Shown piece after piece: positions 3,979 through 14,014 of a stretch of DNA of 64,000 nt. The first letter of the stretch is position 1. The number at the start of each line of letters is the position of its first letter. This stretch comes from a virus, in IMG/VR virus record IMGVR_UViG_3300031857_000105, positions 1-64,000 of that record; one strand, 5' to 3'. Both the position numbers and the translations under genes were made by a program. A model generated the notes under the pieces. It was not told the DNA's origin and searched no databases. It saw only the letters and a list, made by a program, of their open reading frames with translations.

Positions 3979-4006
3979 AAAAAGGACTCTTCGGAGTCCT
4001 TTTTTT
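3979..4006 (+). terminator. Rho-independent terminator after gp23
   Basis: aaaaaGGACTC-TTCG-GAGTCCttttttt; cUUCGg tetraloop plus U tract. Confidence 0.9.
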
Positions 4007-4010
4007 ATCT

Positions 4011-4021
4011 CAGCTAAATAC
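4011..4021 (+). promoter_or_regulatory. Late promoter CAGC-TAAATA-C
   Basis: TAAATA at 4015-4020 just after the terminator; identical 11-mer at 9851-9861. Confidence 0.75.
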
Positions 4022-4030
4022 ATAGTAATG

Positions 4031-4086
4031 ATTCACATGGTGTGAATTTTATGCGGTAACCCACCGCGTACGGCCTAGAACGCCGT
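4031..4086 (+). ncRNA. Candidate structured 5' leader (three tandem hairpins)
   Basis: ATTCACA/TGTGAAT (4031-4047), TATGCGGT/ACCGCGTA (4050-4070), CGGC/GCCG (4071-4085) between promoter and SD. Confidence 0.5.
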
Positions 4087-4108
4087 TATTTCTTAAGGAG
4101 AAAATAAA

Positions 4109-4834
4109 ATGGGACGTCCTTTAAACAAAAAATATTTCGCTAACACAAACTATCAAGATTTTGGTACAGCAGGTGTTGGCGGTGAATCAGTTGCCAGTGT
4201 TACAGCACCAGCAGGTACATTAGCAGATCTTGAAACAGGTACATTTACAATCCCAGCGGCTAGCATTACTGCCCCCCAGATCACGGGCGGTGCTAAACCA
4301 GTTTTACAAGTAGTAGTAACTGGCGCAACAACTTATACTGTTACAGTAGTATCAGCAGGTTCAGGATATACTTCTGCACCAACTATTACATTTAACGGTT
4401 CGATTACCGGCGGAACTGCTTCAGGCAGTGCAACACCAGTAGCAACATTAACAAGCGGTGCAAGTGCTCGTCAAAACGGCATTAAAGCAGAAACACAATA
4501 TGGTTCAGGCGATTCAGAAATCCTTACTGGTGACGTTATCAAACAAGTTAGTACAAAACGTTACAAAGTTCAAACTAGCCAAGCTACTAGTATTTTCAAA
4601 CTAGTTACAACTGAAACTAAAGGTGAAGGCGAAATGAGTATTATGGCTACTGACAGTGCAGGCGGTACATACCTTGTTGCTAAATTAACAGCTCGTCAAG
4701 CAGTATTAGTTCCAACAGCAAACGCTCACGGCGGATCAAGCTCAGCAGGAACGCAATTTGCTAGCGGCACTGGTGCAAAGTGGACATTTGGATCTGCCAT
4801 AGTAGACGATACTGTTACTATTGCTAATCAATAA
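4109..4834 (+). CDS. Virion structural protein (possible head decoration/appendage)
   Basis: 241 aa T/G/S/A-rich, GSGYTSAPTIT beta motif; strong SD; directly after gp23. Confidence 0.55.
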   Translation: MGRPLNKKYFANTNYQDFGTAGVGGESVASVTAPAGTLADLETGTFTIPAASITAPQITGGAKPVLQVVVTGATTYTVTVVSAGSGYTSAPTITFNGSITGGTASGSATPVATLTSGASARQNGIKAETQYGSGDSEILTGDVIKQVSTKRYKVQTSQATSIFKLVTTETKGEGEMSIMATDSAGGTYLVAKLTARQAVLVPTANAHGGSSSAGTQFASGTGAKWTFGSAIVDDTVTIANQ

Positions 4835-6696: not shown

Positions 6697-9600
6697 ATGG
6701 GCATTGAGCTAGGCAGAATTAGTGGCCCATTACTAGCAAGTAATCTTGTTCGTAAAAATTCCGGCGTTGGTGAAGAAAACTTAGCGTTTGAAACAAACCT
6801 ACTTTATCTTGATGTAATCAACGGCCGCATTGGTATCAAAACTAGCAGTCCAGCTGCCGGATATGCGTTATATGTTAACGGCAATATTCGAAGTGACGAT
6901 CTCGAAGTTCCAACTCAATTTGAAACTCCTAATTATGTAGTAAGCACAAATCGTATTCAAAATCTTGTAGATAAAATTTATCTACAACCAGACCAATCAA
7001 CAGATCCAAAAATTGCAGCTCCTAGAGTTGGAACATTAAATCTTAGAATTAGTGACCAACTTATTGAAAATATCACTAGCGGAAGTGATATTAATTTTAA
7101 TCCTAACGGCGATGGAAAAACATCCGTTACGTCTTCTGAAGTATATGTTGACGGCAACATACACGCAACTGGTGATATAACCTGGGACGGAAATATAACG
7201 TTTGGCAGCGATGACGCAGATAACGTTGAATTTTCAGCAGATGTTGACAGCCATATTATTCCAAATGTTAATAAACAATTTGATTTAGGATCAGCTAGTC
7301 AACGTTGGAATAACATATACACAAAAGACTTAACAGCAGAAAGTTTAACATACGATACTATTACAATTGACAACATAAATTTTTTGTTGACTCAAGGAAA
7401 TACTTATTATGTAAGTGCAAACGGAAATGACAGTTCTGTTGGCAATCATTTACACGGTACTTTCCGTACAATCAAACAAGCACTAACTGTTGCTCACGCA
7501 GGCGACACCGTTGTTATTTTTCCAGGTACGTACGAAGAAATATTTCCGTTAACTGTGCCAACAGGAGTAACAGTTAACGGTGCAGGTATTCGTGCAGTTA
7601 CAGTTAAACCTACTGCGGGTACAAATACTAATAATGCATTTTTATTAAACGGTGAAACAACTGTTAGCAACTTGACTGTTAGAGATTTTAATACAGGATA
7701 CGCATTTAGTTTTGCGCCTGGGTTTACCGTAACTAGCCGAAGTCCGTATGTACAAAATGTTACAGTAATAACAACAGGACCAAATGCAGGTAACGGCGCC
7801 TTAGTTGACGGTAGTTTAGCCAACAGCTCCAGTAAAGAAGCCAGTATGTTGTTTCACAGCGTAACAATGCTGATACCAAACGCAATTGGAGTAAAAGCAA
7901 CTAACGGTGCGAGAGTTGAATGGTTAAACTCATTTACCTACTTTGCTGAAAGAGGCTTGTACCTATTGCAAGGTACACTAGGGTTTGCCAGTCTTGGAGT
8001 TAAGTTTGGTGCCGAACTTCGTAGTATTGGCTCAGCAAACGTTTATGGTACATACGGCTCAGTAGCAGACGGTGCAAATACTTTAGCATATTTGATTGGT
8101 CATAATTTTGCTTACATTGGCACTGGTACTGATAGTGCTAATGATGCGTCATTAGTAATACAAGCTAACGAAGTCTTAGAGATCAACAACGGCCGCATTT
8201 ATTACGAAAGTGCTGATCACAAAGGCGATGTTAGAATTGGCGATATTTTTTATGTAAATCAAGAAACTGGAGACATTTCATTTAATGCGCAGGCATTATC
8301 GTTTAATCCATCTGGGTCTATTAGCGTAGAAGGAGGAACTAGTCCTTCTTACGTTGATAAGAATATGGTCATCAGCGGAAATATTAAAATATATGATAAT
8401 AATATTGACAGTTTATCTGGTCCAATTAATTTTTTAGCAAGCTCAGGATCGACCTACCTAAATACCAATGTGTTTGTTACAGGAAATACTACAGTTTCTT
8501 CAGACATTAACGTAGACGGTAATTTATATCTTGGAAATCAATCAACTGATAATATTACGGTATTTTCTAATCTAACACAAGATTTACTTCCTGATGATGT
8601 TGGCGGTCCGTTCACATTAGGAACAGATTCTAAGCGTTGGAATACGCTTTATGCAACATTACTAAATGTTGACGATGTTACACAGATATCATCTAATACT
8701 ATTACAACACTAACGACAGATACAAACTTAATACTGTCAGCAGCAGGAACAGGGCAAGTACAAGTTACAAATACAGATGTAGAAATTGATAATAGTTTAA
8801 CAGTTGGAAATACGTTAACTGTCAACGGCATTAGCAGTTTTCAAGATATTAATTTAACTGGGACAATAACTCAAACGGGAGATTGGGATCAGATTGGTAG
8901 CAGTAATGCTTATATTACTGGACTGTTTGCTAATAACAATATTGAAATTACAGGCAGTTCATATTTTGCAGTTCCGGACATCAAACTACAAAATAGTGAA
9001 ATTAGTGTTACTGCAACAGATAGCGATTTGACTTTAACTGGCGCAACAACAGGCGGCGTAGTTCTAGACCAGCGTTTAAAAATTAACAGTTCTACTATCA
9101 GTAACGTGTGGGCTAGTCCAACAACTGATACACAGCGAAGTGTTATACTTCAGCCTAATGGCACTGGAAATGTAACAATCACAGGAACAAATGCAGTAAA
9201 AATCCCAGTTGGTAATACGTCTACACGAACTATTGCAGCTGGAGAAATTCGATACAACGATGCAACAAATTTGTATGAAGGTGGTGCAGGCACTGGACTA
9301 ATCAGCTTCAACGGGTTATATGATTCTGATAGAAATACATACATAACAACTGGCGCAACTGACAATACAATATACTTTGGAACTAATAATGTTGTTAACA
9401 CCACATTAAACAGCACATCACTTAATTCTAACATTTTTGAAGCAGGCAATGTTCAACTAACAGGTAACACGTTATCAAATATTGTTTCTGGGAACGATTT
9501 AACATTCGCACCAGACGGTACTGGAAATACAATATTAAGTGGATTACCAATAAACCAAAATTACATTATAAATTCGTTAAACAGTTCGTTGAATTTAGAA

Positions 9601-9840
9601 ACTACAGGAGCCGGCTATATTAAATTCTCAGGAACCGCTGGTTTAGTAGTTCCGACCGGTAATGATAGCGGACGACGAGGAACTCCTGAACTTGGAGAAC
9701 TTCGATATAATACTCAAGCGGCCGGTGTATTAGAAATTTTTAACGGCTCGGGGTGGATAAGTGCAGTAGGAAATAATGCAACAGTTTCTGCTGCTGACGT
9801 ACTTGATATTCTTGAACTTTGGACCCTCATTCTAGGGTAA
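6697..9840 (+). CDS. Large fibre/tailspike-like protein with pectin-lyase-like (beta-helix) region; paralog of 9971
   Basis: 1047 aa; YVS.NG.D...G.....F.TIK.AL..A..GD.V.I.PGTY.E motif; G.(I/L)RYN motifs; N-term GRISGPLL shared with 9971. Confidence 0.7.
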   Translation: MGIELGRISGPLLASNLVRKNSGVGEENLAFETNLLYLDVINGRIGIKTSSPAAGYALYVNGNIRSDDLEVPTQFETPNYVVSTNRIQNLVDKIYLQPDQSTDPKIAAPRVGTLNLRISDQLIENITSGSDINFNPNGDGKTSVTSSEVYVDGNIHATGDITWDGNITFGSDDADNVEFSADVDSHIIPNVNKQFDLGSASQRWNNIYTKDLTAESLTYDTITIDNINFLLTQGNTYYVSANGNDSSVGNHLHGTFRTIKQALTVAHAGDTVVIFPGTYEEIFPLTVPTGVTVNGAGIRAVTVKPTAGTNTNNAFLLNGETTVSNLTVRDFNTGYAFSFAPGFTVTSRSPYVQNVTVITTGPNAGNGALVDGSLANSSSKEASMLFHSVTMLIPNAIGVKATNGARVEWLNSFTYFAERGLYLLQGTLGFASLGVKFGAELRSIGSANVYGTYGSVADGANTLAYLIGHNFAYIGTGTDSANDASLVIQANEVLEINNGRIYYESADHKGDVRIGDIFYVNQETGDISFNAQALSFNPSGSISVEGGTSPSYVDKNMVISGNIKIYDNNIDSLSGPINFLASSGSTYLNTNVFVTGNTTVSSDINVDGNLYLGNQSTDNITVFSNLTQDLLPDDVGGPFTLGTDSKRWNTLYATLLNVDDVTQISSNTITTLTTDTNLILSAAGTGQVQVTNTDVEIDNSLTVGNTLTVNGISSFQDINLTGTITQTGDWDQIGSSNAYITGLFANNNIEITGSSYFAVPDIKLQNSEISVTATDSDLTLTGATTGGVVLDQRLKINSSTISNVWASPTTDTQRSVILQPNGTGNVTITGTNAVKIPVGNTSTRTIAAGEIRYNDATNLYEGGAGTGLISFNGLYDSDRNTYITTGATDNTIYFGTNNVVNTTLNSTSLNSNIFEAGNVQLTGNTLSNIVSGNDLTFAPDGTGNTILSGLPINQNYIINSLNSSLNLETTGAGYIKFSGTAGLVVPTGNDSGRRGTPELGELRYNTQAAGVLEIFNGSGWISAVGNNATVSAADVLDILELWTLILG

Positions 9841-9850
9841 AAAACCAAAA

Positions 9851-9861
9851 CAGCTAAATAC
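9851..9861 (+). promoter_or_regulatory. Late promoter CAGC-TAAATA-C
   Basis: TAAATA at 9855-9860; identical context to 4011-4021. Confidence 0.75.
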
Positions 9862-9867
9862 TATTAC

Positions 9868-9956
9868 TGCAAAGACTGACCAAGTTTTTGCGATATTAAC
9901 CTGCGGTAAACCAGCATAGAGCGCAAGCTGAAAATTTGGTTAACGGTGAAACACCG
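9868..9956 (+). ncRNA. Candidate structured 5' leader RNA (multi-stem)
   Basis: TGCAAAGACT/AGTTTTTGCG hairpin; TTAACC/GGTTAA closing two inner hairpins incl. AGC-GCAA-GCT (GNRA); CGGTG-AAA-CACCG just before SD GAGGAG. Confidence 0.55.
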
Positions 9957-9970
9957 GGTAGAGGAGAGCT

Positions 9971-12900
9971 ATGGCTGTTGGTCGTATTACCGGTCCGCTC
10001 TTGAAGGCGAATCTTCTTCGTGATGGAGTTGATCTGGCTTTTGAGACCGACTTACTTTATTTAGATGTTATAAACGGCAAAGTCGGCATAAAGACAATAC
10101 CGGATGTTGGCTACGACCTAGATGTCAACGGTAAAACTCGCTCTACAAATTTAGTTGTTACAAATCAAGCAGATTTAGCAACTTTTACAATCAACAACAA
10201 TACAATATCTAGTTCTAGTTCTACTATTAATTTAGAACCAACTGGCGCAAATGCCGTAGTATATCAGGGTAAAATTGTCACAGGTGATTTACAAGTCAGT
10301 ACTAACACTATTGAAATCACTGCAACAGACCAAGATTTAAATATTAACACACTTGGCACTGGCCAAGTTGTCGTCAACAGTAATTTATTAGTTAACGGCG
10401 ATATTCATGCTACTGGAAACATAACAGCTGATGGTAGTATTCAACTAGGCGATGCAAACACCGATAATATCGTATTCAACGCAGATGTTAACAGTAACAT
10501 TATCCCAGACGATGACATCACTTGGGATTTAGGAAGTGATCCTAATGCAAGCGGCAAGGCTTGGCGTAACGTTTATGCTAAGGATATCTTAGCAACTAGT
10601 GTAACAGCAAATAGCATATTAGTCAACGGCATTGATTTAGCACTAGTTCAAGGAAATATCTACTATGTTGCTACTACAGGTAGCAACTCTAATTTGGGTG
10701 AACACGAACATAACCCAGTACTAACATTAAAATATGCCCTTAGTCTAGCCAATGCCGGTGACTGCATTTATATCTATCCAGGTACATATCAAGAAATATT
10801 TCCTCTAACAGTTCCTGCTGGCGTTAGTATTAAGGGCACTGGTCTTCGTTCTGTTAAAATAGTACCAACAGTAGGAACTAACGATAAAGATGCGTTTTTA
10901 TTGAACGGCGAGACAACTATTGAAGATTTAACGGTAGCAGATTATTTCTATAATGTAACTAACAATACAGGGTATGCATTCCGTTTTGCTACAGGAATGA
11001 CAGTAACAACTCGCAGTCCTTACATTAGAAACATAACAGTTATTACAAAAGGATCAACTACAAATACAGGCGATCCTTACGGGTTTGACAGTAACGATGC
11101 AGGTAAAGGAGCACTAGCAGATGGTAGCGTAGTTAATGCAGCCAGCAAAGAAGCAAGTATGTTGTTCCATTCAGCAACATTTATTACACCTAATCAAGAA
11201 ACTATTACAGCAACAAACGGTGTACGTATAGAGTGGTTAAACTCGTTTAGCTATTTTGCTGATAAAGGGCTGTATCTAACAAGCGGTTCTACAGGCTTTG
11301 CTGGAGTAGGACAAACACGTTTACGTATTGAAAATCGTACAGGTACTTGGGCAGTTGGTAATACTGTAAACTACTACGATACTGACGGAACAACAGTATT
11401 AGGCACAGGCACTATTGCTAGTATTGACGGTAACTACGTCAACTTAACGGGCAAGTGCCTTGGATTTGAAACAATTACAGATCGTCCTGGCAAAACAGTA
11501 TACGCCCAGGGCGATGCTAAATTATCAGTAGCGCAAAAGAAATTTGGAACAGCAAGTTTAGTTTTAGATGGTGTTGGCGACTATATTACTATATCGTCGC
11601 AACCAGATTTTGAATACGGTACTGGAGATTTTACTTTTGAATTTTTCTGGAGACCAACTGCGCTTGGAACAGGACAAGTCTTATTAGATTGCAGAACAGC
11701 CGCAACTGACACAGCACTTTATTTAGAAATGAACGCTTCTGGAAATATTAGATTATTTGTAAGCGGAGCATATCGTATTACTTCTAGTGTTGCATGTACA
11801 GCGGGTACATTTAATCATATAGCACTATTTAGAGTTGGCGGTGTTACAAAATTAGCAGTTAACGGAACATTAACACCTACAACATGGTCTGATTCAACTA
11901 ACTACCCAGCACGACCAGTTAGAATGGGGGCTAGTTGGACTGGTGGAGCACCAAGTACAGGATATATTGATGAAGTTCGTGTAGTTAAAGGTGTAGCAAA
12001 ATACACAACTTCAGTGACAGTTCCAACAGCGCCACTTGCTGGCGATTTATCAACAGTATTACTACTGCATTTTAACGGTGCAAATAATTCAACTACATTT
12101 GTTGACGATGGTCTTACATTTCAAGACTTAAGAACAAGTGCATTAGGAACAGCAAGTCTTATTCAATTTGCAGACTACTCTGACTTTGGAGCAGAACTTC
12201 GCTCAATTGGCTCAGCAAGCGTCTATGGAAACTATGGAGCAGTTGGCGACGGTGACGGCGTTATTGCATATCTAATAAGCCAAAATTTTGCGTATGTGGG
12301 TTCTGGTAAAGTATCTACTAACGATCCTAATGATAGGATTGCTGCTAACGAAGTTGTTAAGTCGAATCGTGCTAAAATTTATTATACTAGCGTGGACAAC
12401 GAGGGTAATTTTAGTGTTGGCGATGCATTTTTTGTAAATCAAAAAACAGGTGATGTATTATTCAACGGTGAAGCACTGACAATAACAACTCCGGCGGGAG
12501 TTACTTTTACGGATGGTGTAAATTCTACAATAATTTCCGCAGACGGAATTGACACTGGTAATATACGCATCAGTGGAAATACCATTGAAAGTTTAACTGG
12601 TCCAGTTAACATAACATCGGCTAGCGGTGCAATTAATTTACAAAACAATACATTTGTTACAGGTAATTTAGATGTTACTGGGGACATTACACTTGGCGGT
12701 AACATTACAATTGGCGACTCTAATACAGATACAATTAATTTTGTTGGTGGTATTAGCAGTAATTTAGTACCAGCAACAACAGCAACATACAATTTAGGAC
12801 AAGGCGGCGCAACTCCGTTACGTTGGAATAACGTATTCTTAAGCCGTGCTGAAATTGACGGACTTGTAATTGATAGTAACACTATTCAAACTACAGTAGG

Positions 12901-14014
12901 CAATGATAACTTAACATTGCAAGCCAACGGTTCAGGCATTATTTCAATTCCAAGTAATGATGTGCAAATAAATCAAAGTTTGACCGTAACAACTGATTTA
13001 ACAGTTACTACAGGAACAACATATTTAAAGAATACTGGCATTACTGGTACTGTTACACAAACAGGCGACATTAATCAAACCGGTAATTTTACCACAAGCG
13101 GTAATACAGAAGTTACTGGAAATATAACTGGAACAGGTTATTTAAGATTACCTAATATTGAAATTAGTGGCAGTACTATTACAACTAGAACTAGTGGCAC
13201 TGATTTACAATTGACAGCTAACGGAACCGGTAACGTTGTAATTGAAGGGATTAAAGTTGAAGACAATGTAATTAAAAGTACCGCAACAAATTCAGATATT
13301 ACATTAACTCCGCAAGGAACTGGTATTGTTACCATTGACAGTAACCAAAGTTTAAAAATTCCAGTGGGTGATAACGCTGCCCGTCCTGGTACACCTGTAA
13401 ATGGTATGATTCGTTACAATAACCAAATTGGACGCTATGAAGGTTATAATAACGGTCTCTGGTTAACTATGAGTGGAGTTGCAGATTCAGACGGTAACAC
13501 ATATATTACTGCTGAATTGACTCCTGGCGCAAATGATAATACTTTAAGATTCTACGCCGATGGCAATTTAATGGCTACCATCGATAGTACTAAGCTATAT
13601 ACAGAGCGTTTAAAAACTAGCAATTTAAATATAGAAAGCAATACTATTAGTTCGATAAGTACTAATAGCGATATTAATTTATCACCAACTGGAACTGGTA
13701 GTGTACGTGTTGGAAATTTAAGTATTAAAAATAATACAATTACCAACGTAGTATCAGGCGCAATAACTGAATTTAGTCAAACAGGCACAGGATATGTAAA
13801 AGTTCCAGGAACTTACGGAATTGTAATTCCATCAGGTACAGACTCTACACGCCCAGGTGTGACTGAAAGCGGAATGATTCGTTTTAACACAGAGCAACAG
13901 CTTGTGGAAGTCTACAACGGATCAATATGGACAGGTGTATCTGGAGTTGGTGGTGGTATTAACTTTAACGATGCAACAAACATTGCAATTGAATACGTTT
14001 TAACATTTGGATAA
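9971..14014 (+). CDS. Large fibre/tailspike-like protein with inserted LamG (concanavalin A-like) domain
   Basis: 1347 aa; paralog of 6697; KFGTASL.LDG.GDY..GDFTFEF..GYIDEVRV.KG.AKYT LamG signature. Confidence 0.75.
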   Translation: MAVGRITGPLLKANLLRDGVDLAFETDLLYLDVINGKVGIKTIPDVGYDLDVNGKTRSTNLVVTNQADLATFTINNNTISSSSSTINLEPTGANAVVYQGKIVTGDLQVSTNTIEITATDQDLNINTLGTGQVVVNSNLLVNGDIHATGNITADGSIQLGDANTDNIVFNADVNSNIIPDDDITWDLGSDPNASGKAWRNVYAKDILATSVTANSILVNGIDLALVQGNIYYVATTGSNSNLGEHEHNPVLTLKYALSLANAGDCIYIYPGTYQEIFPLTVPAGVSIKGTGLRSVKIVPTVGTNDKDAFLLNGETTIEDLTVADYFYNVTNNTGYAFRFATGMTVTTRSPYIRNITVITKGSTTNTGDPYGFDSNDAGKGALADGSVVNAASKEASMLFHSATFITPNQETITATNGVRIEWLNSFSYFADKGLYLTSGSTGFAGVGQTRLRIENRTGTWAVGNTVNYYDTDGTTVLGTGTIASIDGNYVNLTGKCLGFETITDRPGKTVYAQGDAKLSVAQKKFGTASLVLDGVGDYITISSQPDFEYGTGDFTFEFFWRPTALGTGQVLLDCRTAATDTALYLEMNASGNIRLFVSGAYRITSSVACTAGTFNHIALFRVGGVTKLAVNGTLTPTTWSDSTNYPARPVRMGASWTGGAPSTGYIDEVRVVKGVAKYTTSVTVPTAPLAGDLSTVLLLHFNGANNSTTFVDDGLTFQDLRTSALGTASLIQFADYSDFGAELRSIGSASVYGNYGAVGDGDGVIAYLISQNFAYVGSGKVSTNDPNDRIAANEVVKSNRAKIYYTSVDNEGNFSVGDAFFVNQKTGDVLFNGEALTITTPAGVTFTDGVNSTIISADGIDTGNIRISGNTIESLTGPVNITSASGAINLQNNTFVTGNLDVTGDITLGGNITIGDSNTDTINFVGGISSNLVPATTATYNLGQGGATPLRWNNVFLSRAEIDGLVIDSNTIQTTVGNDNLTLQANGSGIISIPSNDVQINQSLTVTTDLTVTTGTTYLKNTGITGTVTQTGDINQTGNFTTSGNTEVTGNITGTGYLRLPNIEISGSTITTRTSGTDLQLTANGTGNVVIEGIKVEDNVIKSTATNSDITLTPQGTGIVTIDSNQSLKIPVGDNAARPGTPVNGMIRYNNQIGRYEGYNNGLWLTMSGVADSDGNTYITAELTPGANDNTLRFYADGNLMATIDSTKLYTERLKTSNLNIESNTISSISTNSDINLSPTGTGSVRVGNLSIKNNTITNVVSGAITEFSQTGTGYVKVPGTYGIVIPSGTDSTRPGVTESGMIRFNTEQQLVEVYNGSIWTGVSGVGGGINFNDATNIAIEYVLTFG

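Follow-up and report, generated by a model that had tools for sequence, protein, structure and literature searches.

Phages rarely have structured regulatory RNAs, and to our knowledge hardly any such RNA has been described for a late structural gene. The translational operators of phage T4, namely the gene 32 pseudoknot and the gp43 and RegA sites, belong to early and middle replication genes and work with defined protein repressors. SAM-II, preQ1-II and similar RNAs are pseudoknot riboswitches that mask the Shine-Dalgarno (SD) sequence. In the S4 leader of the E. coli alpha-operon, a double pseudoknot involves the start codon and the early coding sequence and acts by ribosome entrapment; the first helix of this leader shows extensive covariation and no sequence conservation (PMC3616713). 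The pseudoknot of the S15 rpsO leader overlaps the coding start, and the repressor stabilises one of two conformations, again by entrapment (PMC3616713). The leader of the MS2 maturation gene has several arms and closes the ribosome-binding site of a low-copy virion protein by long-distance pairing, and sequence downstream of the start can contribute to the masking (PMC4615214).

We analyzed a stretch of viral DNA of 64,000 nucleotides (the window), positions 1 to 64,000 of IMG/VR record IMGVR_UViG_3300031857_000105. The window codes for a T4-like prohead protease, major head protein, tail sheath and large terminase. The source record is 76.8 kb long and was rated 21% complete by CheckV, which points to a jumbo myovirus with a DNA genome. 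No similar DNA was found by blastn in 50,697 cultured-phage records. The 130-nt intergenic region noted in a preliminary description was measured as 9841-9970, between a 1047-aa gene and a 1347-aa gene. The latter had been called a fibre gene, a label that we replaced: its product matched PHROG 13163 'baseplate wedge subunit' (E 7e-204), also has a LamG domain, and over residues 125-300 resembled by tblastn the gp7 'baseplate wedge initiator' of T4-like cyanophages and Melnitz-type phages, and is therefore a gp7-like baseplate wedge protein and not a strict fibre. This gene is essential and large. The product of the 1047-aa gene also matched PHROG 13163 'baseplate wedge subunit'. These tandem paralogues (6697-9840 and 9971-14014) have the N-terminal pattern (L/V)GRISGPLL...NL.R...LAFE..LLYLDV in common and differ wholly in codon choice; in the 1047-aa paralogue, the peptide LGRISGPLL is coded CTA GGC AGA ATT AGT GGC CCA TTA CTA. 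The structured leader precedes the second paralogue only, and the order paralogue, leader, gene is repeated in many related loci.

The leader RNA is about 105 nt long and lies within the gap. A covariance model built from 60 sequences (R1) matched the window at 9858-9973 with 117.5 bits (E 2e-27) and gave no other credible match there. Three pattern scans of IMG/VR were made, each of which gave at least about 120 contigs, and a further pattern, GGTAMAACC, retrieved only the L005 and L006 contigs. At least 155 R1 instances were found (98 + 23 + 34, the window copy included), exactly one per contig, and all those beyond the window lay on IMG/VR phage contigs of up to 400 kb. Among the matches listed, the leader always stood before the same orthologous structural gene. 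The gap was kept almost base for base in six of seven relatives defined by their protein, and the leader was conserved although the encoded protein had diverged to 48% identity. A more distant homologue, L007 (40% identity), has no leader, its late promoter standing directly before the SD sequence; at L007:2900-3010, the SD follows a GATAAATAC box after 10 nt, GTG serves as start codon, and VGRISGPLL is coded GTA GGT AGA ATA TCC GGT CCT TTA TTA. A pattern scan of 185,579 prokaryotic species genomes for the family gave three chance matches and zero model matches. The Rfam scan that the preliminary description had suggested yielded no family: with Rfam 15 at permissive thresholds, neither 2 kb nor 171 nt gave a real match, and the plus strand of the gap was empty. 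On the minus strand of the gap we obtained chance-level matches to DUF3800-V (17.9 bits; gathering score 37.4) and CRISPR-DR65 (15.9 bits; gathering score 43). ARAGORN detected no tRNA-like gene in 9700-10100, and full-text literature searches found no similar element. A hidden small ORF in the leader is unlikely because each of the three plus-strand frames is interrupted by stops and the lengths of the insertions differ by numbers not divisible by three. The leader is a new RNA family without a match in Rfam 15, carried by uncultured giant T4-like phages. The features of the locus are collected in the table.

Table. Features of the leader and the adjoining genes, in positions of the window.
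Feature	Position	Strand	Remark
Upstream tandem paralogue, 1047 aa, without leader	6697-9840	+	Internal codon control
T4-type late-promoter box CTAAATAC	9854-9861	+	Match to the TAAATA core; conserved in the family
P1 hairpin, 10 bp (9868-9877/9883-9892)	9868-9892	+	10 of 10 pairs compensated
S1 helix, 3 bp (9902-9904/9914-9916)	9902-9916	+	Covariation; first suggested by RNAalifold
P2 long-range helix, AACCA (9909-9913) with U9936 and GGUU (9938-9941)	9909-9941	+	Covariation
P3 hairpin, AGC/GCU with GCAA loop	9920-9929	+	Length-variable among relatives
P4 hairpin, CGGUG-AAA-CACCG (9944-9948/9952-9956)	9944-9956	+	Covariation
SD GGAG (9963-9966); P5 strand a GAGAGC (9964-9969); start codon (9971-9973)	9963-9973	+	
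Putative leader-controlled gene, 1347-aa gp7-like baseplate wedge protein	9971-14014	+	PHROG 13163; LamG domain; tblastn
K1 strand b, UUGGUC, codons 3-5 (GUU GGU CGU)	9978-9983	+	Exact complement of loop GACCAA
P5 strand b, GCUCUU, end of codon 9 and codons 10-11 (Leu-Leu)	9997-10002	+	Predicted anti-Shine-Dalgarno

T4-type late promoters carry a TATAAATA-like box about 6 nt before the transcript start and recur before late genes. For the late promoter claimed in the gap by the preliminary description, a box of this type was confirmed, CTAAATAC, which fits the TAAATA core; the box was present in all aligned family members at a fixed spacing to P1. From this conserved box and from what is known of T4, the transcript probably starts at about 9866, 1-3 nt before P1. 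The same box lies directly before other structural genes of the window (4014, 24088, 50850). In the form NTAAATAC it was seen at 4014, 24088, 43708, 50850 and other positions, directly before several structural genes, including a 3424-aa gene (24088) and the tail sheath gene (50850), a few of which have only a very short leader; this recurrence is consistent with a late promoter of this phage. A strong terminator hairpin at 3985-4007 follows the major head gene and is itself followed by the late-promoter box CAGCTAAATAC (4011-4021) and by a second leader of 90 nt with three predicted hairpins, which precedes a 241-aa gene at 4109. This second leader (4011-4108) has the string TGCGGTAA in common with the leader at 9851, and its fold z-score was only -1.4. 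We rejected it as a family member, as it gave no covariance-model match even at E-values up to 10.

Folded as a single sequence, the leader was only mildly better than its shuffles (z = -2.4), so the evidence for structure is comparative. We collected the orthologous intergenic regions and tested them for covariation, as the preliminary description had proposed, and found them to be both conserved and covarying. Over the whole structure, 94.3% of cells were paired, compared to 80.8% in shuffles, and 15 pairs had double changes. None of the 500 shuffles matched any of the five measures, and sliding the partners lowered pairing to 30-42%. The frequent G-U and U-G pairs assign the structure to the plus strand. 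A cis-acting structured leader RNA is therefore strongly supported: as first proposed, the element is a structured RNA, and it is conserved in more than 150 phage contigs, covaries and is strand-specific.

The hairpins named in the preliminary description were recovered by the comparison. In P1, all 10 pairs changed on both sides and 94% of cells were paired; its apical loop, GACCA(A) at 9878-9883, provides strand a for the contact K1 described below. The GCAA hairpin, P3, formed in 47 of 47 distinct variable regions as a helix of 3-7 bp with varied loops, followed in 17 of the 47 variants by a second hairpin, P3a; the second pair of P3 was G-C, G.A, A-U, A.G or U-A in variants L171-L176. The hairpin next to the SD, P4, was 99% paired, with CG/GC swaps in 10-13 sequences (second pair CG45/GC10) and two more compensated pairs in the divergent L005. 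On the other hand, the three-way junction helix drawn between TTAACC (9896-9901) and GGTTAA (9938-9943) did not hold, as only 66% of its cells were paired, one C:G pair formed in just 8 of 55 sequences and there was no covariation. The real closing helix, P2, takes the second AACC instead and encloses P3, with 9937 bulged; four of its pairs were invariant and the fifth was found as AU27/CG25/GC2/UA2 with zero mismatches. In 57 distinct sequences, pairing of S1 was complete, at 100% (outer pair UA51/AU5/CG1, middle GC57, inner UG54/CG3); the helix encloses GGUA and the 5' strand of P2. Since S1 crosses P2, either the core is an H-type pseudoknot, or P2 gives way to a local hairpin into which S1 extends. 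We noted that GGUA at 9905-9908, in the S1 loop, and AAG/UAG at 9917-9919, after S1, hardly vary and that the model leaves them unpaired; they would sit in the P2 and S1 grooves of an H-type pseudoknot, where base triples are possible. The invariance of unpaired bases in the core suggests that the RNA adopts a specific tertiary fold or has a binding site there.

The P1 loop reaches beyond the leader into the coding sequence. The K1 helix was paired in 99.7% of cells. Since the initial sequence set had been chosen on GACCAA, we made a later scan that left the loop free. In L143 (loop GUCCAC) and L158 (loop GUCCA), which come from different leader subtypes, codon GGU was replaced by GGA, turning an A:U into a U:A pair. 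L160 combined loop AACCUA with UUA-GGU, a U:A swap at another position, and single loop changes in L137 and L155 (GAUCAA) and L145 (GGCCAA) retained a wobble pair. The outer K1 pair was uncompensated in L140. In L162, the P1 loop is AAAA, the motif is lost and the codons are free (GUA GGA AGA, CUU UUA). Covariation and the frozen synonymous sites show that loop GACCAA is base-paired to UUGGUC of codons 3-5. When HACCAA loops were scanned for, there was a single match, a chance occurrence in an unrelated coding region. Two other partners of the loop were considered. GACCAA is complementary to TTGGTT (9936-9941), the competing helix of the preliminary description, but the outer pairs fail in 12 and 28 sequences and the helix clashes with P2. 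Pairing of the loop with TTGGTT, or of its ACCA with UGGU of 9904-9907, would involve invariant bases only; UGGU 9904-9907 and UGGUU 9937-9941 stay unchanged in L143 and L158 despite the loop change, and we rejected both partners.

K1 is not universal, because two subfamilies keep the core and lack the GACC loop. In the first (L142, L146, L159, L168, L171 and L173), P1 is a long hairpin whose 5' arm starts with GA(A/G)CAG and whose 3' arm ends with UUGGUC or UUGAUC, a copy of the codons 3-5 box; a purine-purine mismatch is kept, with A.G changing to G.A. Here the coding box may compete with the 3' arm for the 5' arm, and the copied box may point to an exchange of strands in place of kissing. 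The second (L144, L150, L152, L164, L165 and L170) has the N-terminus MANVGRISGS(M/L)LRK and keeps the core and P4 at 72-81 bits. Its P1 loops are unrelated and GUA stands before GGU, and the loop-to-codon contact seems to have been lost or replaced.

To assess codon choice, we used as controls 20 genes of these loci that code for the same peptide, xGRISGPLL, without a leader, the window's upstream paralogue included. The Gly codon was GGT in 59 of 59 genes with a leader, compared to GGT 9, GGC 4, GGA 4 and GGG 3 in the controls (Fisher p = 2e-8). Similarly, the Arg codon was CGN in 59 of 59 genes with a leader, while the controls had AGA in 12 and CGN in 8 (p = 2e-9), and the first Leu codon was CTC in 58 of 59 and in 0 of 20, respectively (p = 8e-18). 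Beyond codon 12 of the leader-linked genes, synonymous sites were saturated, the four Gly codons, for example, being near-equal.

The SD sequence GGAG was invariant in the family, and in nearly all 59 sequences RNAduplex placed the SD region in a helix of 6-7 bp with codons 10-11 (P5). We relied on RNAduplex for P5, as the MAFFT register of the SD helix was unreliable. The mean energy was -10.1 kcal/mol, compared to -7.3 when the partners were shuffled and -6.6 with the coding segment that follows. Changes in P5 were mostly one-sided (C to U, A to G); the sole compensated position was seen in seven CAG variants, with U opposite A in 7 of 7, and probably reflects a single event. Based on the frozen codons and the constant complementarity, with little covariation, the SD region can pair with codons 10-11, and this predicted helix is less certain than K1. 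AAGAGC (9917-9922) was considered as an anti-anti-SD strand for GCUCUU and rejected, since its AGAAC and AGAUC variants were compensated inside P3 and not in the coding sequence.

We consider it probable, with some reservation, that the leader is a translational operator whose doubly pseudoknotted fold shuts off the ribosome-binding site of the gp7-like baseplate wedge gene. Most likely, it limits how frequently this gene is translated. The operator would consist of the 5' leader of the late mRNA and the first 11 codons, acting in cis. Transcription would begin at the late promoter, a few bases before P1, and the leader would fold, through the helices for which covariation was found, into P1, an H-type pseudoknot of S1 and P2 that holds P3, and then P4. 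With loop GACCAA paired to codons 3-5 and GAGAGC of the SD region paired to GCUCUU, the two contacts would shut the ribosome-binding site and throttle initiation. Relative to the A of AUG (+1), the contacts occupy -7 to -2, +8 to +13 and +27 to +32; the 30S footprint covers the first two, and the third is the strand whose pairing would mask the SD, so the closed fold should hinder initiation. This closed fold had only moderate stability. The near-invariant unpaired core bases would most likely serve as a platform on which a trans-acting factor could set the closed and open states in balance; this factor, by analogy with the S4 and S15 operators of E. coli, would more likely be a protein than a metabolite. 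The preliminary description had suggested control of fibre stoichiometry or a choice between paralogues. A tuning of the amount of gp7-like protein is plausible; a choice between paralogues found no support, as among the matches listed each genome had a single copy with the same orthologue downstream each time.

A more specific version, a new class of signal-responsive operator in which the double pseudoknot senses a phage or host factor and opens or closes the ribosome-binding site in response, is possible but less likely than not; the factor might be a small molecule, for example, or a protein with which the wedge protein assembles. A true riboswitch, with a core of S1 and P2 that carries GGUA and AAAG in its grooves and binds a small molecule or ion, is unlikely. 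The loop-codon and SD-codon pairings would then form the expression platform. Small pseudoknot riboswitches resemble the H-type core, and variable stems are typical of aptamers. The leader is a conserved, aptamer-like element whose structure is supported by covariation, with highly conserved unpaired core bases beside freely covarying helices and with variable or optional stems (P3 and P3a). Furthermore, P2 is incompatible with a local alternative hairpin (UGYGG with CC-N-GCA), which could act as a switch. However, no Rfam class matched, the leader always stood before the same structural gene with no association to a metabolic or transport pathway, and metabolic logic is absent where the sole controlled gene codes for a virion structural protein. 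With one copy per genome there is also no regulon to indicate a ligand. Finally, no mutually exclusive pairing covaried beyond S1, and S1 is compatible with P2.

It is slightly less probable again that the leader is a stability or processing element, in which the fold protects the late transcript against RNases that depend on the 5' end, or against RegB-like cleavage at GGAG, and also defines the 5' end, with no role in translation rate. Stem-loops at the 5' end are known stabilisers of transcripts, P1 begins 1-3 nt after the inferred start, and the SD GGAG would be masked. Yet such an element has no need of a 45-nt core that is invariant or of covariation between a loop and codons 3-5, and the frozen synonymous sites within the ribosome footprint point to initiation. 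We give little credence to the opposite effect, a translational enhancer or standby site, whereby the leader recruits or positions the 30S subunit and the loop-codon contact prevents misfolding of the start region, with net activation. A pseudoknot that joins a hairpin loop to a site near the ribosome-binding site can raise translation, and the precedent is the activator pseudoknot of IncB/IncI-alpha repA/repZ; in addition, the gene is essential and large and the leader is accompanied by a dedicated late promoter. On the other hand, K1 at +8 to +13 and P5 over the SD are in the 30S footprint and must melt before initiation, and the homologue L007 copes without a leader. The earlier model, a TTAACC/GGTTAA three-way junction that competes with GACCAA-TTGGTT pairing and selects between paralogous fibre genes, is very improbable: every sequence it names exists in the window and GACCAA is complementary to 9936-9941 here, but the junction helix is poorly paired and does not covary, the loop/TTGGTT helix was uncompensated and unaltered in L143 and L158 while the coding partner followed the loop, and each genome has one leader copy.

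The translational operator that we favour would be a covariation-rich case for how phages set the amount of a giant baseplate protein, in a large, doubly pseudoknotted leader that is present in more than 150 uncultured jumbo-phage contigs and freezes synonymous codons. The leader is a new RNA family for Rfam and a marker for an uncultured phage clade. It also advises caution, as selection on the first dozen codons of such genes acts on the RNA and not just on the protein. If the signal-responsive version were true, the leader would be the first dedicated RNA sensor on a virion structural gene, in jumbo T4-like phages.

The S4, S15 and MS2 leaders are the closest analogues, and none is homologous to the phage leader. 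Like the S4 leader (rpsM, RF00140), the phage leader has a double pseudoknot that takes in the start codon and early codons, and a first helix, P1, that covaries extensively without conservation of its sequence. The resemblance is one of architecture only, since there is no sequence or model similarity, the gene is a late structural gene of a phage and not a ribosomal-protein operon, an extra SD/anti-SD helix is predicted, and the range is uncultured jumbo T4-like phages. With the S15 rpsO leader (RF00114) it has in common a pseudoknot that overlaps the coding start, whereas its architecture is larger and no similarity was detected. The 5' UTR of the levivirus MS2 maturation gene is likewise a multi-arm leader with long-distance pairing before a virion protein gene. 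In MS2, however, the upstream strand pairs with the SD itself, and in the phage leader the loop pairs with codons 3-5; control in MS2 is kinetic, during replication of the RNA genome, while here it would concern a late mRNA of a DNA phage, for which a kinetic window is not evident. SAM-II and preQ1-II differ in their association with metabolic genes, which, like an Rfam match, the phage leader lacks, and its fold is larger and doubly knotted; as modelled, an H-type pseudoknot core, conserved groove nucleotides and an action on translation would be features in common. The T4 operators have a different fold, and the phage leader lies on a late baseplate gene; as modelled, both would be leaders of T4-type phage mRNAs with structured or specific sites for translational repression.
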